NCBI GenBank assembly: GCA_012862495.1
Contig: BLSG01000092.1
Location: forward strand, 15,221-79,220
DNA length: 64,000 bases
Origin: Thraustochytrium aureum
Lineage: Eukaryota
Direction: 5' to 3'
The notes beneath the pieces were generated by a model. It did not search any database and was not told the origin of the DNA. It saw nothing but the letters and a program-made list of their open reading frames with translations. The first letter of the stretch is position 1. Each line of letters begins with the position of its first letter. The position numbers and the translations under genes are program-made. Below, piece by piece: positions 23,901 through 59,751 of the stretch.

Positions 23901-26573
23901 AGCAGATCATCGACCCGCTCGACGCGGGGCACGAAGAGGACGCCCTCGATCTCAGCGACGCAGACAGCCTGGCCACGGTGCAGCGCAGCATTTTGGTGTC
24001 GCTGAATCTCTGCGCAGGGGCCGATCGAACGGCGTGCGCGGCTGCTCTCCCAGTGATGATGACCTTTTCGCTCTGCTCTGGCGCGAGTGCGATAGAGTCC
24101 GACGAAGCCAGCGCGTGGGGCGGCCCGCGACCTGAGCATCGGTGCATTTCCCTGCTTCTGTCAGCGGTACTTCACGAACGTATCAGCGTTGCGAATTCGG
24201 CAGCCGCCTTGGGGGCGGCCAGCGCGCCCGAGGGGTCTGTGAAAGGCACCGCAGCGCTGGGCGTTGCGGGCTCTACATCAACAATGTCGCCAGCGCGAAT
24301 TCTCGCGCTGGCGGAGCGTGCTCCGCACGAGTACTCCGACGAGCAGCTGCAGCAAGTGGTTGAAGCGTTTGCGGAGCTGCTGCTGCTGTGCGATCCGAGC
24401 GGCAAGCTCGCCAACCTGTGGTGCCAATACTTGCTTCTAGCGAGCATTGGCATGTACCAGCAGCATATGCACGCGTCGCCTGAGCTCATTGTGCGATGCC
24501 TCAAAGTGTACGGCTTCCTGCGCGCCTGCGTCCCAGGCGCTCTGTGCATCGCATGGGGCGAGCGCGAGCTCTCTGAGGAGGATGCCATCCAAGTGGAGCT
24601 GCTGGCCATTCTGCGCATCTTCCACAGCTCCTGCTCGTCGTGCAACATGGATGTCGCAAGTGCGGCAATGTCTGCAATGACCCACCTTGACGTGCGCTTT
24701 GTGCGTGTCTCTGTGGTAGGCGCCATCCTGGCAACGTATGCCAACCTCGAGGGCAGCCCGCTTCGAGCCACGACGCTGCATTTCCTACTCCGCCTCCCGG
24801 TGCATGAAATCGAGCAGCCCCTCGATTGCGCCCCGTTCCTTTTGGATGGTCTGCAAAGGCGCGTTACCCGCGCAATGCTTGCTGGCGCCGGTGCCGACGG
24901 GAGCGCGCCGTCCGAGCTGACGCTGTTCATTCGGTTTGTCTTTGCCTCAGCGCGGCCGGGCTTTGACATCTTCGTGAGCACGCTTCTTCCGCTCGTCTTT
25001 ATGGAAAAGCTTGCAGGGTCCGAGGTCGTATTCGATTCGATGCTTTCCATTCGCATGGACGAGGCGTTGGCAGACTCTCTCAACTCGTTTTGTGGATGTG
25101 TCCTCAACCGCAAGCTTGCGGGCGAAGCGCTGTCTGGCGTCGCTGACTCGATCGGGACTGAGCGGTTTTGCGCCAGGCTCGCCCGCGCTGCGCACGAGTA
25201 CGGAGCGGACTCGAGGTATCTTGCAGCAGTGTTCTCGCTGTGCACTGCGCTCATCGGCGCGCTGCCTCGGTCCCTCGCCTGCCTGAGGCCAATTGTTCAT
25301 TTGGCCATCACAACCGACGTGCCCCGCATTGACCTCGCGCTCCGACAAGCGAAAAAGGAGTTTTTGGAGCAGGCACAGCTCGTCGCGGAGGAGCGCCGCA
25401 AGCTCGGCCCTACGGCGGCAGCCGAGGACAAGTGCGCAGCGAGCGAGACAGCCAAGCTGATTGAATCAATCGAAGGCCCTGTTGTGTCGCGGTCGCAAAT
25501 CCACGCCTTTGTTGCCGAGTGCATCGAGGAAGAGGCTGCTGCGCTTGAAGACTCGATTTCGGCGGACCTCGCGAGTGCGTGGACGCGAAGTGAGCCAGCG
25601 TCACCACTTGCCTCACGGTCGAGCTGCGACTTTTCTGGGTTTAGCGTGATTGGCGACTCACCTGGGCCGCGCGGCGTGGCTGTTCCGCGTTTTGACACTG
25701 CAACGCGAGTACAAACCGCCGCGCTCATTGCGAACGCGTGTGCCGAGAAAAAGCAGGAGAAGGACCAGCTCCGCAGCCTGAATGAGCTCGCGGACAAGGT
25801 CGGCCTGCAATCGATGCAGACGGGGGAAGGCGTCGCTAGCGCGCAGCAGAAATACGTCGGCAGAGGCGAGCGGGACCTTGTGATGGCCACCAATGAGTGC
25901 TTCTCGGGCGGAGTCGCGTCCTTTGAGGCCGCCAAGTTTCCCTCGCAGGGCTCAGCCCTGGGGGGACTCGGTGACCCAGCAGCAGCAGCAGCAGCAAGAG
26001 GAGGAGGAGGAGAACGAGGAGAACGAGGAGAACGAGGACGGAGAAAACGCGGAGAACGACAGAAGGGACCTTGCGATGGCCGGAGCCGCTCCGCTGCTCG
26101 CGTGCGACAAGACCCGACTGAGAGCCGCGTCCACGATGAGCAACGAGTCCTTCTGCTCCAGCGGCCCTGCGCCGCAGTCGTTCGCGAGCTCAGTCGAGCG
26201 CGTTTTCGGGCAAAGAGGCGTCGAGGTCGCCGTCGAGCGGTTTGTCGCGCAAGAGCCGGCCATCGAGCGTGCCTGGCTTGACTTTTGCTTTGAGGTTGTT
26301 CGGTTTCGTCGTGCGCCGAGCGTCCAGGCGGCCCGTGAGATCGCAAAGCGGTTCATGCAGGTGGACTCGATCGACACGGTCGACCTCGCGCCAGCGGCGC
26401 GGCGCCAAGTGCTGGAGAGCGTCGCCGCGCTGAAGAGCGGCGAAGTCGTTGACGCCGCGATATTCCGGGACCCTCTCGCGGCTTGCGTGGCATATCTAGA
26501 AGAAATTGGGTTTTTGGGGCGATTCATGCGCTCGCCATTCTACGTGGACCGTTTTCGAGGCGCAGCGGCATGA
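17902..26573 (+). CDS. Furry/Tao3/MOR2-like HEAT-repeat scaffold with a C-terminal RGS domain (frameshifted, one gap)
   Basis: Stitched from ORFs 17758, 19314, 20509, 23211, 23531 and 25893. Long helical protein with Furry-like segments (LLLHADWSVATAASHALQRIM; LAQACPQLAPSVLSELCFR..LPW; VWRALC). The C-terminal RGS box is clear: WLDFCFEVVRFRR..AREIAKRFM..VDL..IF..YLEE..FLGRFMRSPFY. Confidence 0.65.
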
Positions 26574-26679
26574 CTGACTGCCCACGAGAGGGGGGCGACT
26601 TGGCGGCCTCGATCGTCCGAGTCGCGTAGATTGAACGGACAGCGAAGTGAACAAGTAGATATATTTTCTTGCGGCGGGA

Positions 26680-29600
26680 CTAGGCGAGCACCTCCTCGTC
26701 GTCCGAGCAGCTGGGGGCGGGTCTTCGACGTCCTTGAGTGGCGGCGGGCAGCGCTCGCGTTTCTGGGCAGGCGCGGGAGAGCAACCCGCCTGGTTGGTCT
26801 CCTCGGCGCTCGCCTTTCTCTTGCTGAAGAACCGGTCCATTGGACCAGCCTTGCGCTTTGCTTGCGGCTGCGCGCTTAATGAATCAGCACGAAGCTTGCC
26901 TGATTTGCTGGCAGGCTTGGTCTGTTTTGCAGCAGCGCTCTTGTCGGCGGAGTCGCTCAAAGGCTGTTTCCCGCTCGTCGGGGGCTTAGCGGCAGAAGTG
27001 GGCGTTCTAGCGAGCTGCGGCGCTGGCGCGCTTACGCGTTCCGATGGCTGCGGCACTGGCTCCCGAGCTGGGGGCTGCGGTAGGGGCGCAACCTGGACTA
27101 GCTTGGCTCGCTTCTTTGGCCTGACGGCTGCTGCCTCGGTCGCACCAGCGCGCAGAGGCTTGGGCTGCGCATTCACTGGGCTGCTCCTGGGGCGTGAGAT
27201 CTTGGGTGCGGTATCCAGCTCTGTCGTTTCTGCAGGCGCCGCCTCCAGCTCTGCTCTTGGTTCTCCGTCGGCAAGCTTTGCACCAACTTGCGCCCCGAGC
27301 CCGTCGCTGACAAAGCGGTCGACAAGCTCTTCGGTGACGAACCAGCGCGGCTTCAGGTCGCCGTCGCGGCGCTCGCGCCTGGCAATCTGGAGAATCTTCG
27401 CCTTGATCTGCGTCTTTGGCGTCGTGTTGCGCACGCCCTGCTCGCGGCGAGCGTCTGTGCTCTGGATGGCGGAAAAACTCAACGCGAAGCGCTTGGTTTG
27501 CTCCACGTGAAAGGAGTCTACCAGGTGCTTCAGGGTCTTGTCGCTGCCATGCACGGCCTGCACCAAGTGCGCGACCTGGTCTTCCGGGAAAGCAGCGGCA
27601 GCGGCTGCGGCAGCGGCAAGCGCATCCCCCGTGGTTGGCGTCTGCGGGCCGCCGGCCTGATTGGCCAACTTGCGTGCACTCGCTGGCGCGTCCCGCTTGG
27701 CCGATGCGGGGGCTTTCCGCTTGCGCGGCATTAGCTCTGCGCAGATCGCCTCCACAGACGGCGCTTCGAGGGGCAGTGTCGCGTTTGTAAATGCCTCGTC
27801 GTTCGGAAGTGCGTCGATCTCGTACCGCAAGAGGTTTTTCGCCTCCTCGCCCTTCTCCCCCGCCCTGATTTTGAGTTCGTCATAGACGATGCCAACTGCA
27901 TAGCGGCCGCACTCCGCACTCCGCGCTTGGGCCACGCGGCGGCGCTTTTTGTTTTTGGGGGGCGGCCTTCCTCCCCGCACTGGCCCTGAGCGGCGGTAGC
28001 CTCGCCGTCATCGTCCGAATCGTCGTCAACCCCAGAGTCGTACTCCACCTCGTCGTCCTGCATTAGCCAACCGTCCTGGTAGTCGAGGTCCTCGCCGCCT
28101 TCCTCCTCTGCTGCGTTGTCACTGTCCGCGATTGACTCGGCGTCATCAGGGATCTCCTCCCACTCGAGGTCGCTCTCCACCTCGTAGTCGAGCGAGCCGT
28201 CCTTTGCGAGGGGGCGGCAGCCACGGATCACGCCGCTGCGCTTTCGAAACGTGCCAAAGTAGGGCGGTCGCACAGACCCGTGGAACTGCAAGAGCTTCTT
28301 GCGGCACTGGTTTGCTGCAAACGCCTCATTCTGCTCGGCGCCTTTCACCGCGCCGCTGTCGCCGCCGACGTCAAGCAGCGAGGCGCTCTTACTTTCGCGG
28401 CGCGCCCGCCGCAGTTCTTGCAGCTCGGCAGCGTGCTGCTTTGCCGCCGTGCGCATCCTGCTTACAAGCGCAGAGAGAGGGAAGGCTTCGCCGGCGACAA
28501 GCGCGGCCTCCATGGCCTCGCGCCGCACTTGCTCGGGGCTCGATGCTGGCGCAGCCGCGCGCTCGCTCACGGGGCTCAGTTCTGGGTTTTCCGCGACAAT
28601 CTCTGGGTTGCGAGGCTCGCTCTTTTTCGCTTTCTGGAAGAAGCGCGTCAGTGGCGGGCCTGCCTTGGACTTGCGCTTCGCCGCCGACTCGGCCTGGCGC
28701 TTGGCCTCGAGCTGTTCCTCTTTCTTTTGCTTGAGCTCTTCTTTCTCGAGCGACTTGCGGACCTTCTCCTCCGCCTTTTGGCGTGCTAGTTCATCTTCTC
28801 GCATGAGCTTTTGCACCTGTTCGATTTCGCGCGCAGCGCGCGCTTCGACCTTGCCGCCAACATTGCGCCGCAGCGTGCAAAGCAAGCGCGCAGCGGCGCC
28901 AACGCGACGGCCGAGGTGGGCCAGCTGCCGCCTGTTCTCAGCCAGTTTGGCGCCGCAGCCTGGTCCAATAGCGACATATTCGCCACTTCCCAGCGCCAAC
29001 CGCGTCCCTGTCCGTGTCGGCGTTTGAGATTGCTGCTTTGAGCTTGAACCCGTAGGCCTTGCGCTCGAGGATGAGGACGACTCTCTGCTCAATAGCGTCG
29101 CGGTTCTTGCCGGGCATCTGCGGGCACAGCATGTCAACAACCTCTTCGAGCGTGCCCTGTTGGCTCTGAACGTGCTGTGCGATAAACTCTGCCGCCGCAG
29201 TGCCGTCCAAGTCGTTCGTCGTGCCAAACGATTCGAGCCCGCCAGCTGAATGCGCGGGCTTCATGATATCGAGGCCTTCGCGCTTGACCAGCTCGACCTG
29301 CTCGTGCAGTTTTTCAAGCCACTCTGCGTATGTGGCGATGCGCGGGTCCTCGTCAGCGGTGACCACGTTCGTCGACTCGCCGCCAGGAGCCGTGCCGCCA
29401 GGCCCAAGAGCCGTCTTCGGCTTTGGCTTGCTCGCTGCTGCTGCATCGCAGGTCTCGCGGAGCGCAGCCAACTCTGCGGACGCCTTGGCGGGCAAGCCCG
29501 CGAAATACTCCTCGGCAAGCCACCAGCGACGCTGGGCGTCCCCAGGGCGCCGCTCGTTGCAGCACATTTTTGCCATCTGCTCGGCAAGGGTGACCTTCGT

Positions 29601-34869: not shown

Positions 34870-35949
34870 CTAGAGGCGCGAAGAAGCATACCGCTCGTAA
34901 GGGACGCGGTCGACAAACTCCGAGTTGACCTGCTCGCGGTCGAGGAGGTCGCGAAGCGCGCGCACGACCGGGCCGGGGCGGCCGTCGCCGACCGAGCGGC
35001 CGTCCAGCCGCACAACAGCGCGCACGGTGCCGCCGCCAAACTCGATGATCTCGTTGGCCTTCAGAGCGTCCTGCATCGTGAGGTCGGAAAACTCGGCCCC
35101 GTTGAGAATCCCACGCGGCATGAGCTGCTGGCGCGCCAAGCTGAAGGCGCGCACCACGGTGGTTGATTTCAGGATGCGATCTGTCTTGGGCGACCGGAGC
35201 ACGCCATCGTCGCCGACGAGGCCGATCGAGCCGATCGCAAACTCGGCGATGAGGCCGTCCGGACCAATTTGAAGGCCCAGCGACTCAGGGCGCCCCGTCT
35301 TCTCCTGCGCCTCCATCGTGCAGAGCGCGTTGATCAGGTAGTTGTTGCTCTTGAGCGTAGCGAGGTACTGGTTCTTGAGCGGCACGGACACCGTGGCCTC
35401 GTGGACGATAAAGCCGTCGTCAGGGCGCGGCAGAGGCGCGCCGGGCGCCGGCGGCTTGCCGTTGGCGTGCACGACGCAGTAAAAGTTGCAAATCTCGAGG
35501 CAGGCAGACGGGGTAATGGCAAAGTCACCGCGGCCGGCCGACATCCAGTACCGAACGTAGACGTCGTCGCGCTTGCCGCTGACAGCGATGGTCGACAGGA
35601 TGATCTCCTTGAGCTTCGCCTTTTGCACGGCCGGGTCGGCCGAGCCGAGCCATGCCGCGCGCGAGACGTCGATGCGGGCTTTGCGCGCCGAGTCGAGCAG
35701 CCTGTCCAGGTGGAAGGACAGCCCGTAGCACATGCCGAGCTTGACGTTGGCTGTGTCAAAAACGGCGTGCCCGCGAGTCACCATGTGGTCGTCCACGGGG
35801 ATCTGGAAAAGCGCCGGGTCGCGGGTCACCCCCCCCAGCACGCTCGAGTAGAAGGCAAACACCTCGTGCTTGCCATTCTTGTTCACGCGCGCGGCGTGCT
35901 GCCGCAGCAGCTTGACGCCGGCCTCGCCGCTCACCACCGGGACAGACAT
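34870..35949 (-). CDS. Class IV PLP aminotransferase, plant-type D-amino-acid transaminase / 4-amino-4-deoxychorismate lyase-like
   Basis: FYSSVLGG..IPVDDHMVTRGHAVFDT, HLDRLLDSA, PLP-lysine LKSNNY, IL..TT, VGDGRPGPV; intact ORF from MSVPVVSG. Confidence 0.9.
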   Translation of the reverse strand: MSVPVVSGEAGVKLLRQHAARVNKNGKHEVFAFYSSVLGGVTRDPALFQIPVDDHMVTRGHAVFDTANVKLGMCYGLSFHLDRLLDSARKARIDVSRAAWLGSADPAVQKAKLKEIILSTIAVSGKRDDVYVRYWMSAGRGDFAITPSACLEICNFYCVVHANGKPPAPGAPLPRPDDGFIVHEATVSVPLKNQYLATLKSNNYLINALCTMEAQEKTGRPESLGLQIGPDGLIAEFAIGSIGLVGDDGVLRSPKTDRILKSTTVVRAFSLARQQLMPRGILNGAEFSDLTMQDALKANEIIEFGGGTVRAVVRLDGRSVGDGRPGPVVRALRDLLDREQVNSEFVDRVPYERYASSRL

Positions 35950-36810
35950 CCCACCACCCTCGCAACGAACCGCCCAGCCGAGCGAGTGCAGAATACGCGT
36001 CAGCGCCTTCGCGCCGCGAAGCCACCCGCCAGCGCAAGCGCTTCGTCCAGACCCGCGTGCCGCAACAGCGCCTCCTCGATGCCGAGCCCGAACGCACCAC
36101 TGCTGCTCGGCGGCCACGACGACATGCAATCAATCAAAAAGACGTCCAGGACACGATGCCGTCCTGTGTCTTCCCACCACTCGATCGATGCACGAGCTCG
36201 ACGAGGCCCTTGCGAGGCATGCAGTGCCGCGGCGAGAGTGTGCTCGAACAACTCACTCGCTGCGTCAAGGTCGGTAGGTAGGTAGGCGCTGCACGGACTC
36301 TGCTCGCGTGGTGCGCTGGCGAGTCGCGACCGCGTCAACCGCGGCGCGCCGGCGCAGCAAGTACATCTTGCTGCACGTGTCCCGGGTCTTCTCGGCGCGT
36401 GGGACGCTCGCTTGTTCGCGCGCGAGCCTCGAGCCTGGCTGAGCGCCCGAAGTCAGACGGGGTGACTTGTGCGAGTGCGATGCGTGAGTTGTGCGTTGGT
36501 GCACCAAGTAAGTACGACGGGGTGAGTTGTGTGTTGGTGCACCAACAATCTGGCCCGCAGCTACTCTGGAGAACGAGTTCTCAGTATACCTACCGTGTAA
36601 AACGGCGTCGAAACCGCTGGGCTGGCCGGCGCATCGCTCGGCCCTGCCCGCGCTTGGACTGGCCACCGGCTGAGTTCGGTTCGCGTTACGGATCATCGAG
36701 CGTAGAGGACGCGCCAGGAACGCGGCGCGAAAGGCCCGTGCTCACAAGTGATCGATCGCCGTTGGCCAACAAAACAAGCCGATGGTTCACGAGATTTTCA
36801 ATTAGTTAAT

Positions 36811-37759
36811 TCAAACACTGGTCGCTGGCAGGCAGCTGCGGACATTGTGCGCCCACTCTTTGGCTCTCAGTCGCGCAAAGCTGTGATAATCTTGCCGTGA
36901 CAGCCGAAAAGCCCGATGCCAAGCCTTCGCAGATCGCCATGGGTCAGGCACTTGCACTTTTTCGATCATGTCGAGCCTTTTGACGATGTCCTTATAGAAC
37001 CTTTCCATCTCGACGCTTTTGAGCTCCCTGCTGGTCTCGCCCGTTCTCGACACGCACCGCCGCTGCCGCCGCTCCTCGATCTGCTTTCGCAACCAGATGA
37101 AACCGTTGAGATTGCTGATGAGTTGCGCAAAATGTACTTCCTGGTAGGATTGTAGTCGCGGAAAGCGGCGAAGATCTTGTCGCGCCAGCCCAAAAGCTCG
37201 TCGCCAACACGTCGATGCTCAGGCTCACTTGCTCTGGCTGATGCATGCGCTTCCTCTCACCCTTGAGGAGGCTTAACATGCTCCAGCTTTTGGAACCTCT
37301 GAACGGCGCGCCAAAAAGTAGAGCGCTCATCCGACGGCAGTTGGCTGAGAACCGCGAGCGCGATGTCTGCTGTTGGGGGCTCTTTGGCGCGCAGGAGCTG
37401 GCGCTCAATCAACTTTCTCTGGCTCGCCGCACTCAGCTCAGCAAAGGCAGTGAGCAGCGAGTCCTCAACGGCGATGGTCTCGAATGGCTTCTCACGCCCA
37501 TTCGTCTCTCTTGAGGCACGTTGGTTTGCGGCTCTTTGGGGCATTCGAGGAGACGCCAGCCTCGTTGACCCTCGCAGGCTTGAAGCAAGCAGGGCTTCTT
37601 GCGCAGCTTTGGCTTCGCTCAGTTCAGCGGAAAGCTTGGCGGTCTTCCGCTCGAGATCCAGGCAGACATCAAAGTACGGCCTGCAGCGGCCCTCCAGCAC
37701 CTGGCTCCCGACCACAGCCTCTTCCTCCACATTGGCGCCAACCGGCACGATCGCCCGGA
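36811..37759 (-). CDS. Hypothetical helical protein (C-terminal part; about three frameshifts; 5' end in gap)
   Basis: Protein-like segments chain across ORFs 37257, 36992, 36966 and 36811 (coiled coil DLERKTAKLSAELSEAK ... MERFYKDIVKRLDMIEK); no family recognised. Confidence 0.55.
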
Positions 37760-38361
37760 NNNNNNNNNNNNNNNNNNNNNNNNNNNNNNNNNNNNNNNNN
37801 NNNNNNNNNNNNNNNNNNNNNNNNNNNNNNNNNNNNNNNNNNNNNNNNNNNNNNNNNNNNNNNNNNNNNNNNNNNNNNNNNNNNNNNNNNNNNNNNNNNN
37901 NNNNNNNNNNNNNNNNNNNNNNNNNNNNNNNNNNNNNNNNNNNNNNNNNNNNNNNNNNNNNNNNNNNNNNNNNNNNNNNNNNNNNNNNNNNNNNNNNNNN
38001 NNNNNNNNNNNNNNNNNNNNNNNNNNNNNNNNNNNNNNNNNNNNNNNNNNNNNNNNNNNNNNNNNNNNNNNNNNNNNNNNNNNNNNNNNNNNNNNNNNNN
38101 NNNNNNNNNNNNNNNNNNNNNNNNNNNNNNNNNNNNNNNNNNNNNNNNNNNNNNNNNNNNNNNNNNNNNNNNNNNNNNNNNNNNNNNNNNNNNNNNNNNN
38201 NNNNNNNNNNNNNNNNNNNNNNNNNNNNNNNNNNNNNNNNNNNNNNNNNNNNNNNNNNNNNNNNNNNNNNNNNNNNNNNNNNNNNNNNNNNNNNNNNNNN
38301 NNNNNNNNNNNNNNNNNNNNNNNNNNNNNNNNNNNNNNNNNNNNNNNNNNNNNNNNNNNNN

Positions 38362-41254
38362 GTGCGCGGCGCCGTCGTCGCGGCGGCGCCGTCGTCGCGG
38401 GCTCGCGGGCTCGCCGGGTTCGTTTGGCGCGGGCACGCCCCGCCATTTCGGTGGGCCGGTCGTGGTCCGCGAGGATGCTCGACAAGGCGAGCTTGACCCG
38501 CACGCGGACGCTGCGCGGCAGGCGGGGCCGGGGAAGCGCGGGGATGGGCGAGTCGTGGCGGAGGCCGTCGTGCGGCCGAAGATGGATGGGAGCGGGTGGG
38601 AGATGGTGCCGAAGGTCGACGCTGGCACGTGTGTGACCAAGCTTGTTGTCCAGGCGGTTGGGACGCATGTCGGTGTGCCGCACGGGGCAGGGCTTCGGGC
38701 GCTGATCGAGGCTGTTGGCGACGTGGAGGAGGTCGATCTCGCGCTCCTGAGGCTCCCCTCGCGCGAGTTCTTCCGGGACGTTCTCGGGCCACTCGCGAGC
38801 AAACCGAGCTTGAGCGCGGTCAAGTTGGACGGGGCGCTCTGCTTTGTGCACTCGGCGCCGCTGATGCGCGCTGGCGCTTGCCAGCGACTGCAAGCGGGCC
38901 AGCTTTTGCCAATCGAGCGGATGGCAGTCACCTCGGCGTGGGCGACGTGGTCCTTCCCGCTGGCCGCTCGCACGGGCAAGTGGCTGTTCGGCGTTGCGCT
39001 CGACCTGCGCGGCGAGGGGGCCTGCTCGGTCGAGATCGGCTTTGTGATTCCCGCAGGCGCGCCGCGGCCCGTCGCGCGCTGGGCGCTTGACCCGGAAAAC
39101 GGGCTCGTCCCCTTGACGTCCAGCTCCGCCTCCTGGCCAGGGGCAGGCCTGACGCCTAGCTGGACGCTGCGCATAGGCTCTGCTGACAGGATCGCAGTGC
39201 GCGTGGGCGGGGTCAGCATGCTCGTCATCCAAGTCACCATCGATTGCGACTCCGGTCGCGTCACCTTTTACGCCGACGGGGAGCAGCTTGGCGCGGTAAA
39301 CGTTGACGCCGGCCTTGTCAGCGTCGGCGAGGGGATCACGCCACTTGTTGCCGCCTCTCGCGGGGCCAAGCTCCAGGTCTCCGCCCAGACCACGATGGCC
39401 TTCCCGAACGCCACTTTTGCAGCGTGCCAGCGCGTGCGGGACGACCTGCTGCAGCAAGGGTTCCGCCCGTTCGCGTTGGCCACCGCCGAGCCAGACGAGA
39501 TCGCCCATGCATGGGGCGTGGCCTCGGCGTGCTTTAAGCGCGTCAGCCATGTTGCGGTGTCCAATCTCACGGCCATCACGCAGAGCCACGTCTTTCGCGC
39601 CCTGGACAGGCTTGTAACCTTGGACCTGAGCGGCGCCAGAGCTGGAGACGCACGGTTCGCTTCGCTATGCAGTTGCCTTGCGCGGATCAAGGCGTCCTCT
39701 TCGCTAAAGGCCCTCTTGCTGGACGACAATGGGATTTCGGACCTCGAGCCCCTGCTCGACTTGTTGCGCTCAAAACCAGGGCGCAGACTCGCAAAGCTGC
39801 ACCTCAGCGGCAACCTGCTTGGCCCTGCTGCCGCGGCCGGCCTGGCTGAGGCCCTCGCCACCAGTGCCGTGTGCGTCACGGACCTCGCCCTTGCTCGCAA
39901 CCGGCTCAGAGTCCCCGGGCTCGCTGCTGTGCTTGACGGGCTTGCGTCGGGGCCAGAAGCGCTCAAGGCGATTCGCGCGCTTGATCTCGCGGCCAACATG
40001 CCCGCCCCAGGCTCTCCAGGAGCCGACCTGGACGACGACCTCGAGCCTGGCATGGGCGCGAATTCTGCCGACCTCCGGATCGCGCTGCACGCTGTCTTAC
40101 GCGATTCGAAGATCGAGGTCCTCAACCTCTCGCACAACTGGATCGCGCTCTCTGAGGGGCCGAGCAGCGTCTTTTCGAGGCCGTCGCGAGCGAGCGGGCA
40201 CTCGCGCGGCGGCCCAGAAAGGAGCTCTCATGATGATGCCACTGACATGAGCGCTGCGGCCACATTGAGAGACTTTCGGGCTGTTGGAACGGCGTCTCTG
40301 AGCGGAGCTATCCTCGCGACCCTTGAGCGCGCTGCGACCTGCTCGCTGCAGCGGCTCGAGCTCTCCGCGGCAGATTTCGTTGGAGAAGCGTTTGTCAACG
40401 CGGTTTCCACCGTCGAGAGCCTCTCGGTAGACTTTTCCGAGCGCCCTGCGAGTATCGCGCCGAGCTCGCAGCGCGCGCCGCTCGAGCCGCAAAACGCTCG
40501 ATGGGCTTCGTTGATCTGCTCGATCACCTCATGTACAGGTCGAAAACTTCGACACAGCCGACGTGCTCGAGCCTGGAGCTCACAGCAGCCGACTTTGACC
40601 AGGACGCGGCCGAGTCGCTCGCGCTCCTGCTCCAACGCCCCAATACGCAGCTGGGCCGCCTTTGCCTCTACGGGTGCACCGGCGGTGCCCTTGCTCGCGC
40701 GGCCTGCGGTCCTCGGCTCAAGCACGTCGAGCTCGTCGGGTGCGGGCTCGGGCAAGGTCGCTTGCTGGAGGGGTTCGCAGAGTCGCTCGTCCACATGCCA
40801 GCGCTCGAGCGGCTGGGGCTTCGGGGAAACGGAATCGACGGGGGCGGACTCCGGATGCTCTTGCTGACCGGGAGCGAAACGCCAGCGCCGCGCGTCCTCG
40901 GGGCCATGCTGCGGCAAGTCGACCTCAGCGAGAACCCGATCCCGACCGCGGCCCTGGCGCACGCTTTTGAGGCTCTCAAGGAGAATACCACAATCCGCCG
41001 CCTCGCGTTGAGCGCGTCGCTGGGGCTCTGCACGCCGGTGCCGGCGCCCCCTGACGAGGACTCGATGGTAGCAGGGTTGCTCGCCCAGTTCCTCGAGCTG
41101 GATTCGGTAGATGCGCGAAGGGACCTGATCTGCGACCTGTTTCTCCGGCGGCAGTCTTCGGAGCTCGCCCACGGCGGGCGAGCCCGCTCGCGGTCTGGAT
41201 CTCGAGGCGCACTCTCCGCCGTGGCCGCCAAGGTCGTGGGGCGGCGTCGCCGCC

Positions 41255-41287
<33 letters not shown>

Positions 41288-44200
41288 CTTCGCGCGTTGA
41301 AGTGAGCCACCTCGGGCACTGTTGGTTGGCGGCAGAGCGCCTGCGCCCAGTCGTGCTCGTGTGCCTGGACTGGGTGCTTCAGAACGACGAGGCGGTCACC
41401 CTCGTGGGCGACCTTGTGGTCGGGAGCCGGTCGAGCGTCGGCCTCGCAGCGACCGCGCGGTTCCCGTTCTCTCGCGTCCAAGGAGACTTGGTGCTGTGTG
41501 CGGTCGACAGTTTTGTTGACGCGAGCGCTGTGCGCAGCGTGGAGGGCGCCTTTGTAATCAGCGGCCAGGCGTCATCTCCGACGCTTTGCGCCGACTACCT
41601 AGAGGCCGGCCAGGCGCTGGTTGTGCGCGAAGTTGCCATCAGGTCGCTCCCGGCCAAAATTCGAACGGGCGTGCTCGCCGTGGGAGGCTGCGCGGACCTT
41701 CGCGCGCTTCCGCCAGACCTCCAAGCCCGCCATGTTATCCTTGACGACTTGCAGCTGGCTAGCTTGCCGGGGACCCGCCCTCAAGACCGCACCGTGGCGT
41801 GCAACAAGTTTGATTTGCAGCGCGCAGAGCGGCGCGTCCGCATCCCGATGCAGGTTGACAACACGCGCTGGGCCGGGCTGCGCAGCCTCGAAATCTCCAA
41901 TTGTCCTTTGGTGGAGGCCCTTCCTGCCGGCCTGACGCTCACAAACCTCACGCTCTGCTCGCTGCCTACGTTTGCGTTTGAGACCCAGTCGCCCGGCTTT
42001 CTTTCGGTGGATGGGTCCCTCACGCTCGTGGACCTCCCCTGGGTGGCGAGGCTGCCCGCTGGCATCACGGCGCTCGACGAGCTGGTCATCGCAGAGTGCC
42101 CTCGGCTTGGCAGGCTTTCCCCCACGCTAGTCGTTCGCAGCGTTCTGGACGTTCGACAGTGCCCGATCCGGTTTTTGCCGGGGCGCCGGCATGCTCCGCC
42201 TTGCTGGGGGCAAGCTTTTGCTGGAAGAACTGCCGCGCCTCGAGAGCCTACCGGCGAGCCTTGAGCCCGATGTTATCATTTTGCGGCTCCTGTGCAACCT
42301 TTCCAGCGCCGTGCCAGTGCCCGCGAGCGAGCTCGAGATTTGCTGGTGCCCGCGCGTGCGCGAGTTGCGGTGGCCGCACACTCGCCGGTCTGGCCCGAAA
42401 GGCGCTCCCGCGCTTGGGCTTCGGCGCCTGCACTTGGAGGCCAACGCGAGCCTCGAGTGGCTGGCGCCTCTGGCATCCAACGGTTCTGCACAAGAGGGCT
42501 ACCCCGTGATGATGCGCCCCGGGCCAGACACTAGCGTGACGCTATGTACATGCCCGCTCCTGAGGAGCGTCCCCGTTGCTGCTGGCCGCGTGGGGTCTCT
42601 AGAAATCGATTCGTGCGACGCGATCGAAGAACTGGACGGCGGCGCTGCCTCCCGGTGCCTGACCGTGTTGAGCTGTGCCGGGCTCGAGCGCATCACCGGG
42701 CCGGTCGTTGCCGTCGAGGAGCTCGAGCTTGAGATGCTGTCGGCGCTCGAACGGGTCCCAGCCCTCCAGGTTGGGCGATCGGTGTCGCTGCGCTGGATCC
42801 CGCTCTTGCGCGAGATCGGCAACCTTGGAGTGCCGGAAGGTCAGCAAGAGCTCGAAACGGCGTTTCTGAGCGGGCTCGGGATCGTCCGCACGCCCGCCGC
42901 GCTTCGTGCGCGTATGGCGACCATTTCGTACTGCCCGAACTTGGTCGCGCTCGGGGCGGGGTTGAGCGTCTCGCAGGCGCTTCGCCTGGACCAGCTGCCA
43001 CGACTCGTCGGGTTCCCGGGCTCGGCGCGGGCTGCTGGCTCCGTTGTGATTACAGAGTGCCGCGCTTTGACAGACATCCCCGAAGGGACTATAGCGGCTG
43101 GGTCGACAGTGGCGATCGGAGGGCTCGGCGCGCAGGGCTGGGCGTTGCAGGCCCTGCGAAGCAGGCTCGAGAGCGAAGGCGTCGAGCTCGAGGTGCCAAG
43201 GTACGCACACGCCGCGCCANNNNNNNNNNNNNNNNNNNNNNNNNNNNNNNNNNNNNNNNNNNNNNNNNNNNNNNNNNNNNNNNNNNNNNNNNNNNNNNNN
43301 NNNNNNNNNNNNNNNNNNNNNNNNNNNNNNNNNNNNNNNNNNNNNNNNNNNNNNNNNNNNNNNNNNNNNNNNNNNNNNNNNNNNNNNNNNNNNNNNNNNN
43401 NNNNNNNNNNNNNNNNNNNNNNNNNNNNNNNNNNNNNNNNNNNNNNNNNNNNNNNNNNNNNNNNNNNNNNNNNNNNNNNNNNNNNNNNNNNNNNNNNNNN
43501 NNNNNNNNNNNNNNNNNNNNNNNNNNNNNNNNNNNNNNNNNNNNNNNNNNNNNNNNNAGGCTGCCTTGGCGTTTTGGACCGCGCTTGCCGCGGGGACTGG
43601 TCGCTCGATGCCTCGCGGCTGGAGGCCGCGCTCGAGCGCGGCGACCACGCGGGCCTGCTCATGTTCCTGCGCAAGCTCGCGGCCTCCAAGGAGGGTAAAC
43701 AGCCAGGCACAAACCAGGGGCCTCGCGGCGCGGGTGGTCGAGGTGCTCGATGTCGTCTCCACCACGAGCGAGCGCTCGGTGCGGCGCGAAATCCTGTTGC
43801 GCGTCAACGACAGCGTGGACGCGTGCCACGACAAGCCCATCTGGGCCCTGAACCAGGTCCAGCAGCTCGTGCAGTCCGTTGCGGCTCGAGGAGACCGGGC
43901 CAAGCTCAAGGCCCTTGGCCGCGCCGTCATGCGGCTCGAGATAGTGCACAAGCACGCGCGTGCCCTCCTCGCGGCGCTGGACCCCGACACCGACGACGTC
44001 TGCGTTTTCCTCAGCTTTGAGATAGACCTGCGCGAGCGGCTCGAGCTGCCGGTGTCTGCCCAGGCGATGTGGTTCCCCAACGTTGTACAGATTCCGCCCG
44101 AAGCGCTTGACGCGGCGTGTGAGGAGGCGCTCGCAGTGAGCGAGAGCAGCTTTGAGGCGTGGCTCGTGTCTTGGCCCGAGTGGCAACGGCAGCTCCGCAC

Positions 44201-44447
44201 GGAGGCAGCCGCAGAGATTGACTTTGCCTCGCTGCCGCGCGGCCAGCTCAACAAGCGGCTCTCGGGTGTGCCGACCTCGTTTGCGGGCGACGAGCTGCGC
44301 GAGCCGGTGCTGGTGGGCCAGGCCGGGCCGTACGAGCTTGGCGAGCTCCTGGACCGCTGGGTGGAGACAGGGATGGACTTCAACAACGTGCCGTGGACCG
44401 CAGACTTGGCGGCGTTCCGAGCCGCGCTGCGCGGCCTCGACCTCTGA
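38362..44447 (+). CDS. SPRY + RI-type LRR + second LRR block + NEL (IpaH/SspH-like) E3 ligase domain + U-box-like C-terminus; 5' end in gap; frameshifted
   Basis: SPRY-like GKWLFGV..VEIGF..IDCDSGRVTFY.DG..TPLV (~38940-39380); RI LRRs LKALLLDDNGISD, LAKLHLSGNLLG, LERLGLRGNGIDG; LxxLxIxxCxxLxxLP repeats (41650-43100); NEL FLRKL..V.EVLD..ACHDK..RL..DDVCVFLSF..LRERLELPV..MWF..W..WQ (43560-44200). Confidence 0.8.
41256..41287 (+). repeat. (AGC)n trinucleotide repeat inside the CDS
   Basis: About 10 tandem AGC units. Confidence 0.9.
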
Positions 44448-44696
44448 GAGCAGCTGCGAGAGCGATTCCCTTNNNNNNNNNNNNNNNNNNNNNNNNNNNN
44501 NNNNNNNNNNNNNNNNNNNNNNNNNNNNNNNNNNNNNNNNNNNNNNNNNNNNNNNNNNNNNNNNNNNNNNNNNNNNNNNNNNNNNNNNNNNNNNNCGAGA
44601 GCGATTCCCTTCGAATAGCATGCTACTCTATCGTGTAATTTGCTAACGTGTTTACTACTCACCCTACCGACCCGACCTCGCTACTAGCCGCCCTGC

Positions 44697-45352
44697 TCAC
44701 CTCAGGGCGTGCAAGAACCGCTGGCGGTACAGCGGGTCGTGCGCCTTGTGCTCGTGGGGCGCGGGCGCGTCGAGCTCGTGGCGGATGGAGCGAAGCTTGC
44801 GGACGTGGAACCAGGCCGCCCTGATCATCGACTTGAGGTGCCCGTTCCCCAGCAAGTGCGCCACGCACCACTCGCGCCGCAGCAAGTGCCTGGCCCTCCG
44901 CAGGTGCCCGCGCTGCATGGCGTTGTACGCAAGGTGGATGCGGCACTGGCAGGCAAGCGCCTGGTCGCCGAGCCTGTGCGCAATGCGCAGCTGCTTCCTC
45001 GCCATCAGCTCTGCGGCGTCAATCTGCTTGCACAGAAAGTGCCCGCCCCCGAGCGTGGAAACGTACGCATTCGCCGTCACCAGGCCGATGTGAAGGTTGA
45101 GCACCGTGGCCACGCGCTCATCCCAAGCGAGCGCGCCCCACGTGACCGGCTGCATCCACGCCGCGGCGCCCAGCTCCACAACAACGAGGCCCAGCCGCCC
45201 GTCCCCGCCTTCCTGCAGCCCGTCCTCGCCCAGCCCAAACGACCGCAGCCTCCATCCGCGTACCGCCGCGCACGGCCTCGCCCTCCGCAGCTCGCCTCCC
45301 TCCGTGCCAGCAGCCGCCGGCGTCCACGTGCCGAGCCATCCTCGCGCGTCCT
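44697..45352 (-). CDS. DUF4807-like TPR-helical protein (5' end in gap)
   Basis: W..STLGGG..A..QL.IA..LGD..L..C..H.AY..Q.G pattern resembles DUF4807 (C. elegans F58A4.6-like). Confidence 0.55.
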
Positions 45353-46247
45353 NNNNNNNNNNNNNNNNNNNNNNNNNNNNNNNNNNNNNNNNNNNNNNNN
45401 NNNNNNNNNNNNNNNNNNNNNNNNNNNNNNNNNNNNNNNNNNNNNNNNNNNNNNNNNNNNNNNNNNNNNNNNNNNNNNNNNNNNNNNNNNNNNNNNNNNN
45501 NNNNNNNNNNNNNNNNNNNNNNNNNNNNNNNNNNNNNNNNNNNNNNNNNNNNNNNNNNNNNNNNNNNNNNNNNNNNNNNNNNNNNNNNNNNNNNNNNNNN
45601 NNNNNNNNNNNNNNNNNNNNNNNNNNNNNNNNNNNNNNNNNNNNNNNNNNNNNNNNNNNNNNNNNNNNNNNNNNNNNNNNNNNNNNNNNNNNNNNNNNNN
45701 NNNNNNNNNNNNNNNNNNNNNNNNNNNNNNNNNNNNNNNNNNNNNNNNNNNNNNNNNNNNNNNNNNNNNNNNNNNNNNNNNNNNNNNNNNNNNNNNNNNN
45801 NNNNNNNNNNNNNNNNNNNNNNNNNNNNNNNNNNNNNNNNNNNNNNNNNNNNNNNNNNNNNNNNNNNNNNNNNNNNNNNNNNNNNNNNNNNNNNNNNNNN
45901 NNNNNNNNNNNNNNNNNNNNNNNNNNNNNNNNNNNNNNNNNNNNNNNNNNNNNNNNNNNNNNNNNNNNNNNNNNNNNNNNNNNNNNNNNNNNNNNNNNNN
46001 NNNNNNNNNNNNNNNNNNNNNNNNNNNNNNNNNNNNNNNNNNNNNNNNNNNNNNNNNNNNNNNNNNNNNNNNNNNNNNNNNNNNNNNNNNNNNNNNNNNN
46101 NGTGGCGGGCGGGACCGTCCTCGCACGAGGCTGAACGGGGCGCTCGGAATCGGCAGGCGCACTCGTGAAGCGCAGCGCATTTCGACGCCTCGCGGGCCGT
46201 TGCAAGCGAGAAGCGCACGCCGGCCCAGCGCCAAAGAGGGTGAGAGG

Positions 46248-57514: not shown

Positions 57515-59007
57515 CTACTTGAGAAGCTTAAAGTGGTGGTTCTTGAGCCGCGTGAGGGCGTGAAAGCCAAACTGCGACAGCGAGAGCCCCTTGCCGGTGT
57601 CCTTGCGCCCTTGCCATGGCATGTACGGGTCCAGGTAGTCTGCGCGGTTCATGAAAACAGTGCCGACGTCCACGCCGTCGGCAAAGCGCTTCGCCTTGGC
57701 TTCGTCGTTGGTAAAGATTGGGGCCGTGAGTCCGCACGTCGACTTGTTGATGCCTGCGACAGCCTCTTCCATCGAGGCCACCTTTTGGAAGGCAATGAGC
57801 GGGCCGAACGACTCGTGCGTCATGCACTGCATCGAGGCGTCGCAGTCAGCGAGCAGCGTCGGCTTGAAGATGCGGGGCCCGCCAGCGTCCGCCGCAGGCG
57901 TGTCGCCGCCGATCACCACACGCGCCCCCTTGGCGCGAGCATCCGCGACGAGACCGGCAAGGTACGGAATGGCCTGCGGCTGCGCCATCGGGCCCACCGA
58001 CGTCGCCGGGTCCATGGGGTCACCGGTGCCGTATCCGCGCTCCACCTCGGCGCGCGCCATCTCGAGCACGCGGTCGTACTGGCTTTCGTGCACAAAGACG
58101 CGCTCGATGCCGCAGCACGACTGTCCGGCGTTGTAGAGGCCACCGTCCACGAGCGTGGCCACCGCGACGTCGAGGTCTGCGTCCTCGGCCACGTAGGCGC
58201 CGTCGTTGCCCCCCAGCTCGAGCGTGCAGTCGATGAACTTGCGGCTCAGCCCGACGCTCTCGTTGACGGCGCGCCCGCCGGGGATCGACCCCGTGAACGA
58301 AACAAAGTCGTACAGCCCGTCCCGAATGCCTTTGTGGACCACGTCGTAGCTGCAGGTGAGCGCGCTGACCAGGCCATCGGGGACCCCTGCGTGCGCGAAG
58401 GCCATGGCGAAGTGGTTGCTGATCAGGGGGGTGCGAAACCCGTGGCTCAGCACGACAGCGTTCCCAGCGAGCACTGCCGGCACGACCGAGTTGACCGCTG
58501 TCAGAAGGGGAAAGTTGTATGGGGCGAGGGTGAGCACGACGCCGACGGGCTCGCGCACGATCGTGCGGTGAAAGTGCTCGGTGTCGCTGTTGTTGGTTGT
58601 GGCGCCGAGCACGACGTCCCCGAGCGCAGCAGGGGCGAGGTCCATCATTGCAAGCGTGCGCTCCTTGAGGCCGCGGATCTCGCCGGTCGAGTTGGTCAGC
58701 GGCTTGCCCATTTGGCCCGTGATGTCCTTGGACACCTGCTCCGCGTTGGCAGCAAAGTACTCGAGGAATCGCTCACAAGCCTTGACGCGCTCTTGCACGG
58801 AGGTCTTCTTCCACTCGCGCTGAGCTGCGGCCGCTTTCGCCTGCTGCGCTGCGACGGCGCGATCGTCCATGAGCTCGACCTTGCAGTACGTCTCGGCGTG
58901 AACGGGTTGTCCACCTCGAGCACGTTCGGCGCTGTCGCCATTCCGCGCGAGCCGGCCACCACGCGAGCCGCACTCGCAGCTGCCGCAGCGCCTCCACGCC
59001 GCATCAT
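57515..59007 (-). CDS. NAD(P)-dependent aldehyde dehydrogenase with a probable mitochondrial presequence (one -1 frameshift at ~58898)
   Basis: PYNFP, FTGS, LELGGND, GQSCC (catalytic Cys), ESFGP; N-terminus MMRRGGAAAAASAARVVAGSRGMAT..VDNPFT in ORF 58696. Confidence 0.92.
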
Positions 59008-59751
59008 CTTGGAGGTTGCAAAGGACGACGCAACCGGCGCGACAAGAAGACGCTGTCTCGAAAGCCTGGCGAGGTTGCCCTTTTTCAGTTTCAGGCGCTC
59101 GCGTTGCACGAGTCCTCGAAACTCGCGCAAGCCAGCGGCCCAACTTCGCTCCTGCTCGCCCTGTCCAAGCTTGGAGCTCGGCCGCCGTCCTCGCGGATGT
59201 CAAGTTGGGGCTCTGCTGCCGGCCTGCGTGGGATGGCGGAGGATGCCACGCGTTTCATCAGCCCCACCTTGTAGGGCGGTCTCGCAGGATACTTGGAGGG
59301 AGGGAGGTGCGCATTGACTTTGATCGAGAGGACGACCGCGTTGCCCGTCTCGGGCGCCAAGGTGGCAGCCCGCATGCGCAGGCTGTCGTCGTTCGATCAA
59401 GAAAGCGCCGTGGAGCTCTCTCTTGTCTTTGGAAGCGGCAGGCTTGTCATCGTGCCAGGTGTGCGTGCGCAAAGGCCTCTGCCGTGCTGGGCGAGCCCGT
59501 CGCTCTGGCAGGCCCTCCAATCGTCGCAGTGTCGTCGCCGCAAGCAGAATCGAATTGGCAGCACGCAGCACAGTACAGTATACCATTGCTAACCGCGCTC
59601 AACGCAACGCGAGCTGCCGGCGGCGAATGCAACACGGACGGCGCGGCCAGTGTGTCTCAGCCGGCCGAATCGGAAAGAGCAGGCACAAACTGGCGCGGGC
59701 GGCGACAACAAGGGGTTTGTGCGCGCGTGGGGAGCGAGGCAGCGCTGCGCT

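Follow-up and report, generated by a model that had tools for sequence, protein, structure and literature searches.

The stretch of DNA analyzed here (the window) comprises 64,000 nucleotides of Thraustochytrium aureum (assembly GCA_012862495.1, contig BLSG01000092.1, positions 15,221 to 79,220 of the forward strand). On its plus strand lies what is most likely one gene, of about 1,860 codons, that encodes, in order, a degenerate SPRY-like domain, two classes of leucine-rich repeats (LRRs), the catalytic domain of the NEL ubiquitin ligases typified by IpaH and SspH, and a short tail for which a U-box-like fold is predicted. The features are listed below with positions counted from the first letter of the window; X1, X2, and X3 are public runs whose contigs were compared with the locus.

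38582..44447, plus strand: entire gene, in-frame ATG nearest the gap (putative start) to TGA, about 1,860 codons, no intron needed
38924..39406, plus strand: degenerate SPRY-like domain (Pfam SPRY 15.5 bits, cut-off 26.3; subfamily profile 10.5 bits)
39611..41025, plus strand: ribonuclease-inhibitor-type (RI-type) LRRs (6 strict repeats plus about 6 looser ones), insertion near 40150-40300
40496: first frame break (break 1), within a single-base run, absent from X1 and X2 contigs (one-base length difference)
41150..41300, plus strand: Ser/Arg-rich linker with a trinucleotide repeat at about 41247-41293, where the contigs of other runs break
41674..43090, plus strand: Cys-type LRRs, 8 strict repeats of the 22-residue unit common to bacterial-type NEL-U-box proteins
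42180: second frame break (break 2), within a single-base run, absent from X1, X2, and X3 contigs (one-base length difference)
43220..43557: inner assembly gap of 338 N, where one X2 contig has 55 letters and keeps the frame
43560..44213, plus strand: NEL catalytic domain, helical core (Pfam PF14496; family profile against IpaH/SspH/SlrP)
43595..43717: third and fourth frame breaks (breaks 3 and 4), within single-base runs, cancelling each other
43824..43832, plus strand: catalytic C-x-D motif (Cys 43824, Asp 43830), aligned with the C-x-D of IpaH
43992..43994, plus strand: distal Asp of the catalytic set, corresponding to IpaH9.8 Asp397 by residue count in the profile alignment
44268..44444, plus strand: predicted U-box-like (zinc-free RING-fold) domain, in place of the helical thumb of IpaH

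Integrity of the locus

In the assembly, the plus strand from 38363 to 44447 is read as five overlapping open pieces with no stop codon in any of them, and four of the pieces match, in order, a profile built from nine intact relatives. An initial annotation of the window had proposed that this is one gene if four frameshifts were errors and two gaps could be accommodated. Contigs of four public runs were compared with positions 37000-45400. X1 is possibly the sample behind the window, and X2 and X3 belong to another study of a related strain that differs by about 1-2%. That X2 and X3 are RNA runs is a guess only, and none of the six public runs listed for the locus was recorded as RNA.

The first two breaks were missing from the contigs of other runs, and the signs at the last two were weaker: the one-base difference at 43717 was seen in an X3 contig only (depth 3.6), and the sole sign at 43595 was the 9-letter loose end of one X2 contig, which fits a one-base difference. 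All four breaks sit in single-base runs. Since breaks 3 and 4 cancel each other, they would, if real, scramble 41 codons without a stop; the stretch between them matches the NEL profile (positions 23-54, 11.6 bits) in the shifted frame only. As for the gaps, the inner one is bridged in frame by the X2 contig, and the outer one (37760-38361) is probably outside the gene because the first in-frame ATG is at 38582. The frame stays open upstream of this ATG back to the gap at 38362. Because of the one-base differences at the breaks, the in-frame bridge, and the intact relatives with transcript-derived members, the locus is very likely one gene, as had been proposed, and the frameshifts are most likely assembly errors.

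A decaying pseudogene in the sequenced strain, or two genes (SPRY-LRR and LRR-NEL), would fit the four frame breaks of the assembly, the degenerate SPRY, and the fact that no single contig or shown transcript crosses the locus. However, breaks 1 and 2 are missing from contigs of two studies, all four breaks sit in single-base runs, none of the pieces contains a stop, other genes of the window likewise seem split over frames, and intact relatives exist, including transcript-derived ones. This alternative is very improbable. The strain comparison can also be read at the level of codons. Base differences from X2 amounted to 66 rows in all, and among the 40 shown, 36 lie within the gene: 20 silent, 16 missense, and no stop, with 26.7% expected to be silent. 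The rough ratio of nonsynonymous to synonymous rates (dN/dS), without correction for transition bias, was 0.29 (p 2e-4), and the differences between the strains look purifying.

Three other explanations of the locus were rejected. Introns do not account for the frame breaks, as the other contigs show one-base differences instead of skips. Bacterial contamination does not fit the eukaryotic neighbors (CAF1A, Frizzled domain) or the GC content (67% in the gene vs 64% in the window), and a viral insert was rejected on a scan of viral contigs with two short clade-specific patterns and a scan of phages (1 weak match). Separately, a 33-base stretch at 43724-43756 also matches an unrelated deeper contig in X1, X2, and X3, possibly by chance.

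Domains of the protein

Pfam PF14496 was found in 43719-44444 at 78.3 bits (cut-off 24, E 6.9e-22), and the family profile matched IpaH/SspH/SlrP at E 1e-25 to 1e-17. In NELs, the cysteine of the C-x-D motif and two aspartates are catalytic, as a section of PMC9320238 describes. Residues were counted in eukaryote-type and bacterial-type rows, which were separated by score rank and tree with taxon names unused, after the removal of 8 short rows and 7 near-duplicates. The Cys and Asp of C-x-D were present in 81 of 82 eukaryote-type rows (the other having a gap) and in 64/64 bacterial-type rows, and the distal Asp in 80/82 (the remaining two carrying Glu) and 63/64, respectively. A predicted model of the NEL region of a relative, P0001, which stands in for the window core, had a confidence (pLDDT) of 89.9, and the top ten ranks of a Foldseek search with it were IpaH/SspH/SlrP (IpaH3 E 4.5e-6, SspH2 E 1.9e-5). 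The domain is directly preceded by LRRs of the 22-residue Cys-bearing class.

The protein thus has the Pfam domain, the three catalytic residues, the predicted core fold, and the preceding LRR of the NEL ligases. It has neither their helical C-terminal thumb, which binds the ubiquitin-loaded E2 enzyme (E2~Ub), nor the status of a type III-secreted bacterial effector, given its eukaryotic neighbors and thraustochytrid protein clade. The NCBIfam IpaH model scored 40.9 bits against a cut-off of 550, and NCBIfam equivalogs were far below cut-off. Judging from the conserved residues, the window NEL is quite likely catalytically competent. The initial annotation was correct in calling an NEL, but the catalytic unit is an NEL plus a U-box-like domain and differs in this from an IpaH-type NEL.

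This last part, about 60 residues long, had been overlooked. It is conserved yet unlike IpaH: IpaH/SspH sequences align with positions 3-244 only of the 291 in the profile, with the match ending at 236-244, and the C-terminal subdomain of NELs is the E2~Ub-binding thumb (according to a section of PMC12506513). An AlphaFold model of the window's own tail, which contains 0 Cys and 0 His, had a pLDDT of 89.7. With this model, the 32 Foldseek rows shown were all of U-box/SP-RING type by title, or spliceosome entries read as Prp19 chains; the top match was Prp19 (prob 0.91, TM 0.68), and nothing fell under E 0.001. In an independent structure comparison that covered 48,161 chains, 4 reached a Z of at least 5 in the first pass, and all 50 rows shown were RING, U-box, or SP-RING by title or by our own reading, among them AvrPtoB (Z 6.1, root-mean-square deviation 3.5 over 79) and Prp19 (Z 5.1, 2.1 over 52/56). 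Such Z values are weak alone, and the U-box claim is carried by the uniform list of matches and by a chain of sequence comparisons.

In that chain, the tails of more distant relatives resemble plain U-boxes. A profile of 20 bacterial-type tails matched LubX (E 3e-8) and Prp19 (E 5e-7), and the eukaryote-type and bacterial-type tail profiles matched each other at 97.5% (E 7e-12). The window tail scored 17.6 bits on the bacterial-type profile, on which four canonical NELs scored below 0 or gave nothing. Homology to solved U-boxes is therefore reached indirectly, from eukaryote-type tail to bacterial-type tail to LubX/Prp19. A sequence search of the PDB with the eukaryote-type tail profile returned no U-box, and the ESM Atlas gave no usable match for the NEL-tail unit. 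The tail is predicted to have a U-box/RING fold, and it probably serves as a dock for the E2.

Upstream of the catalytic unit, the SPRY-like domain proposed initially is present in degenerate form. It falls below the Pfam cut-off, and a profile of the corresponding regions of the nine relatives gave 10.5 bits with the two halves in the correct order (domain scores 2.6 and 5.3), compared to at most 1.8 per domain for 500 shuffles and the reversed sequence. The ESM Atlas had no usable match for the SPRY region. Pfam placed the LRR families in the gene below their cut-offs and NEL above. By motif, 6 strict Asn-bearing RI-type repeats occur at 39704-40909, with about 6 looser ones counted by eye, in agreement with the "roughly ten" proposed, and 8 strict Cys-type repeats at 41674-43043 make up the second class that had been placed directly before the NEL. 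A profile of 323 LRR units from bacterial-type relatives matched two pieces of the gene (E 4e-7 and 2e-6), while the reversed pieces gave at most 2.4 bits. No B-box, zinc RING, NACHT/NB-ARC, or RING1-IBR-RING2 was found by Pfam in the window gene or its relatives.

The two repeat classes are distributed differently. The 22-residue Cys-type LRR was found in 41/51 bacterial-type relatives (proteins over 450 amino acids [aa]) and 54/63 eukaryote-type relatives that lack SPRY. At least 3 strict RI-type repeats occurred in 0/51 and 0/63 of these groups and in 9/9 SPRY-bearing relatives. Because the Cys-type LRR is widespread and the RI-type repeats are confined to SPRY-bearing relatives, the proposal that eukaryotic recognition modules (SPRY, RI-type LRRs) were grafted onto an older LRR-NEL unit is supported.

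Family members and bacterial relatives

When the NEL piece was used as a query, 14 longer relatives were found. A profile of 11 NEL regions retrieved 1,803 cluster representatives at E 0.001 and 190 at 1e-30, the best 150 of which were listed. Nine intact relatives of 1,408-2,418 aa contain SPRY and NEL with LRRs between them (P0001 and P0002; P0025, P0026, P0030, P0036, P0041, P0048, and P0052, among 41 scanned). Two cluster members are transcript-derived: P0015 (P0001 cluster, 1,952 aa), whose sequence was inspected, and P0163 (P0026 cluster, 1,671 aa), which is labelled complete and known as a listing entry only. The architecture seen as a single sensor-ligase in the initial annotation is thus shared by nine relatives, but the gene is a member of a sizeable family and not a one-off. 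Hondaea fermentalgiana has 8 proteins of the family, which is expanded, and there is no second NEL within the 64-kb window. Other named members of the high-scoring group are Thraustochytrium sp. LLF1b and a record of MMETSP0958, which we take to be Aurantiochytrium; the taxon id printed for it is that of a fungus and differs from the id of A. limacinum by two swapped digits.

The N-termini vary across the family (SPRY/RI-LRR, ARM, SAM, TPR). Other architectures, namely TPR-NEL-kinase, ARM-NEL, and SAM-NEL, were seen in P0046 (Hondaea GBG33660.1), P0006, P0027, P0028, P0072, P0167, P0022, and P0044, and fusions with tubulin, PRP6, or PCI (P0173, P0168, P0072) may be merged gene models. Six members (P0006, P0023, P0025, P0061, P0078, P0168) are NCBI records on 6-11 kb contigs among thraustochytrid proteins, one labelled Durusdinium trenchii; these may derive from a thraustochytrid in a dinoflagellate culture.

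Among the 64 bacterial-type rows, the 3 that are named belong to Candidatus Rhabdochlamydia, Endozoicomonas, and a gammaproteobacterial metagenome-assembled genome (MAG). All three have the Cys-LRR, NEL, and U-box-like cassette in the same order, and no SPRY was found among 66 bacterial-type proteins scanned. Most of P0089-P0160 and locus L001 (L001:3-875) form a large unannotated bacterial-type LRR-NEL-U-box family, in which Endozoicomonas has near-identical neighboring accessions. These proteins are candidate effectors with a hybrid ligase module. One row, P0091, combines bacterial-like residues around the catalytic Cys with a eukaryote-type tail; its branch is long and attaches basally in the eukaryotic clade.

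In the NEL-core tree of 75 rows, the eukaryote-type clade (96/92) had a sister containing the Rhabdochlamydia and Endozoicomonas proteins (94/89, unstarred). Canonical NELs fell outside, and the grouping of eukaryote-type with bacterial-type NEL-U-box proteins was supported at 96/91, and at 99 in the mixture-model tree. The mixture model, run on 45 rows, placed the eukaryote-type clade (100) inside the NEL-U-box group without settling its sister. With NEL core plus tail, after 21 long-branch or fragment rows were removed, the window gene grouped with the nine SPRY proteins and three fragments (81/97; FastTree 0.963). The simplest reading of these trees and domain orders would be a single bacterial transfer followed by expansion and shuffling, and the direction from bacteria to protist is very likely.

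The opposite direction, in which the NEL-U-box unit was born in protists and then passed to bacterial symbionts, draws on U-boxes being eukaryotic modules and on an approximately unbiased (AU) test under which the two groups could be sisters (p 0.495). It is improbable, since canonical NELs, which fall outside both groups, come from bacteria, the eukaryote-type proteins make up a single branch whose named members are almost only thraustochytrid, both maximum-likelihood trees place this branch inside the bacterial-type radiation, and the bacterial-type tails are the more canonical U-boxes. Further relatives were sought elsewhere. None was confirmed in viral contigs (20 candidate stretches) or GTDB genomes (65) with two short clade-specific patterns, so that absence is only weakly indicated. 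Seven bacterial-type proteins, used as queries, led to 1 locus among 84 candidates, plasmids contained canonical NELs only (167 records, none covering 80%), and phages gave 1 weak match.

Mechanism, role, and genomic surroundings

The reading that we favor, with reasonable confidence, is that this is most likely one intact nuclear gene whose product is a ubiquitin ligase of the cysteine-relay kind, located in the cytosol and likely active. Its LRR-NEL-U-box core would likely come from bacteria and have been extended with SPRY and RI-type LRRs. By analogy with the biochemistry of IpaH/SspH and of RING-between-RING (RBR) ligases, the SPRY and the two LRR arrays would bind the target, and the NEL-adjacent LRR may restrain the enzyme until then, as in IpaH/SspH. 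The U-box-like domain, at the place of the IpaH thumb, would dock E2~Ub, and ubiquitin would move to the NEL cysteine as a thioester, much as RING1 feeds the catalytic cysteine in RBR ligases. The two aspartates would then assist its passage to the target lysine. A tail without the usual loop proline and linchpin arginine would not favor direct transfer to lysine, so that ubiquitin would go to the NEL cysteine instead.

Such relay chemistry would be compatible with an ordinary housekeeping or developmental ligase whose bacterial origin is old history and that has no link to defense, and we give this about an even chance. The SPRY subfamily keeps one architecture over nine clusters under 50% identity, in two old lines, the strain differences look purifying, and the neighbors are housekeeping genes. 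On the other hand, divergence is much faster in the sensor parts than in the NEL (21-37% vs 44-54% identity), and the wider family has expanded and been shuffled, with 8 Hondaea paralogs and ARM, SAM, TPR, and kinase partners. Fast divergence is common in LRRs, however, and the stable architecture of the subfamily is equally compatible with housekeeping. The joining of SPRY to an E3 is a known theme in immunity (a section of PMC8195603), and Aurantiochytrium hosts a persistent virus (part of PMC12606086). A role in defense, or in xenophagy as the initial annotation suggested, is possible but tentative. The broadest proposal would be a new class of RING-cysteine hybrid E3, with a U-box as E2~Ub dock supplying a NEL cysteine, that originated in host-associated bacteria (chlamydiae, Endozoicomonas, others), was captured once by a thraustochytrid ancestor, and became a family of sensor-ligases belonging to the protists themselves. 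In it, the SPRY/RI-LRR branch would serve cell-autonomous immunity in the manner of TRIM ligases, directed at intracellular bacteria or giant viruses; taken as a whole, this is rather unlikely.

Several observations weigh against the relay ligase as described. Breaks 3 and 4 each depend on one contig of a related strain, one of them at the depth of 3.6 given above, and no single contig spans the whole gene. The SPRY is far more decayed here than in the relatives (Pfam 15.5 vs 41-69 bits). The tail reached only modest fold scores (Foldseek E 0.14; Z 5-6). Pfam detects a U-box in 0/8 eukaryote-type tails, the window's included, and in only 3/20 bacterial-type tails (best E 0.003). As to origin, only 3/64 bacterial-type rows have a taxon name, and some of the others could be eukaryote-encoded; the AU test is compatible with a separate bacterial-type clade (p 0.495), so that nesting and any donor are tentative; and the NEL core alone does not resolve the SPRY subfamily. 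The loop-2 proline and the linchpin arginine have established roles in U-boxes, and the loop proline is present in 3/82 eukaryote-type vs 42/64 bacterial-type rows, so its loss could mean that E2 binding was lost. At the linchpin place, where the alignment is loose, 23/64 bacterial-type rows have Arg and 68/82 eukaryote-type rows have Asn. Asn can act as a linchpin, as in Rbx1 (described in part of PMC7667886), which weakens the relay step. RBR RING1 domains do without the linchpin, according to a section of PMC5462532, and the Asn observation therefore points both ways.

With one gene and an active NEL granted, the tail may be something other than a relay dock, either a second RING-type ligase site (one that elongates chains or works with another E2) or a relic with a structural function, the E2 being bound elsewhere. 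The bacterial-type tails often keep the full pattern of proline plus basic linchpin (20/64, vs 0/82 in eukaryote-type rows), like free-standing U-boxes, and the eukaryote-type tails, nearly all without the proline, have the near-constant Asn that Rbx1 uses. However, the tail begins where the IpaH match stops and replaces the only known E2~Ub-binding subdomain, and the NEL cysteine and the tail are retained together across the family. We consider this alternative unlikely. Export of the protein as an effector to hosts or prey is highly improbable for a protein of about 1,860 aa with no clear signal peptide or membrane helix in the window gene or the nine relatives (crude hydropathy), in an organism group that owns E1, E2, and ubiquitin, as eukaryotes do. 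In its favor, all studied NELs work inside the cells of another organism (as stated in a section of PMC9320238).

The relay ligase that we favor can be set beside known systems. Like IpaH, SspH1, SspH2, and SlrP (PF14496; PDB 3CVR, 3G06, 9H6W, 6LOL), it has an LRR before a helical NEL core, C-x-D plus the distal Asp, and the predicted core fold. Unlike these, the window gene is eukaryotic, adds SPRY and RI-type LRRs, has another LRR class beside the NEL, and ends in a predicted U-box-like domain where they have the helical E2~Ub thumb. The bacterial LRR-NEL-U-box proteins (Rhabdochlamydia MGR3911938.1, Endozoicomonas WP_252022682.1, MAG locus L001) share the order of Cys-type LRR, NEL, and tail, but have no SPRY or RI-type LRR, a tail nearer to the canonical U-box, and an annotation as NEL only. 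Further counterparts are Hondaea GBG26008.1 (P0030, annotated "Ryanodine receptor") and the P0001 and P0026 clusters, with SPRY, RI-LRR, Cys-LRR, NEL, and tail and 44-54% identity in NEL plus tail; their SPRY is much better preserved, and no description as a ligase appeared in the papers found.

The U-box ligases (Prp19, E4B/Ufd2, CHIP, LubX, AvrPtoB) share the predicted zinc-free RING fold and a sequence link through the bacterial-type tails, whereas the window tail is below Pfam detection, is without loop proline and linchpin Arg, and is fused to a Cys-bearing catalytic domain. With the RBR ligases (HHARI, Parkin, HOIP), the protein would share a RING-fold E2 dock that lacks the Arg linchpin and serves the cysteine of another domain (compare a section of PMC5462532), but it has no RING1-IBR-RING2 or zinc ligands, and its catalytic domain is the unrelated helical NEL. 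TRIM and NLR proteins likewise join a SPRY or RI-type LRR sensor to an output module (part of PMC8195603); by Pfam, the window protein has no B-box, zinc RING, or nucleotide-binding domain.

Reviews describe NEL ligases as occurring in bacteria only. A literature search, with subscription journals and bioRxiv supplements outside it, found no description of a thraustochytrid NEL, a eukaryotic NEL of this type, or an NEL-U-box fusion. The nearest claim is an "NEL"-like part of algal NLRs, which rests on an LRR superfamily label (in a section of PMC7145615), and four supplements of PMC12221091 contained no NEL term. Two features are unexpected, the eukaryotic home and the U-box in place of the thumb. 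Eukaryotic NELs are already visible in public databases, under NEL tags or misleading names, and the U-box tail is unannotated.

A eukaryotic lineage that retains many NEL genes with intact catalytic residues would extend the range of eukaryotic E3s by one type. It would also be one of the rare instances in which an effector of the ubiquitin system passed from bacteria to a host genome. A predicted U-box at the place of the thumb would mean that NELs can exchange the part that binds the E2. It would also suggest a further independent RING-to-cysteine relay beside the RBRs and provide a natural means of studying the route by which E2~Ub gets to the NEL cysteine; a section of PMC12506513 reports that no NEL transfer intermediate has been captured structurally. 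If the immune-ligase proposal were true, a bacterial weapon would have been reused for host defense.

Several other genes were recognized in the window. Domains of chromatin assembly factor 1 subunit A lie on the minus strand at 26499-29260 in two overlapping frames, pointing to further frameshift errors (or an intron) in the assembly. Also on the minus strand are a class IV aminotransferase with relatives in protists and bacteria (34873-35958), a DUF4807 protein (44700-45350), and an aldehyde dehydrogenase (57518-59254), and a Frizzled-domain protein is on the plus strand (61479-63386). Long gap-broken frames at 1466-15877 on the plus strand contain, at 1466-2623, SPRY together with a ZZ zinc finger and, at 13157-15877, two SPRY with MORN; these are possibly one giant SPRY/ZZ protein, and perhaps another ligase.

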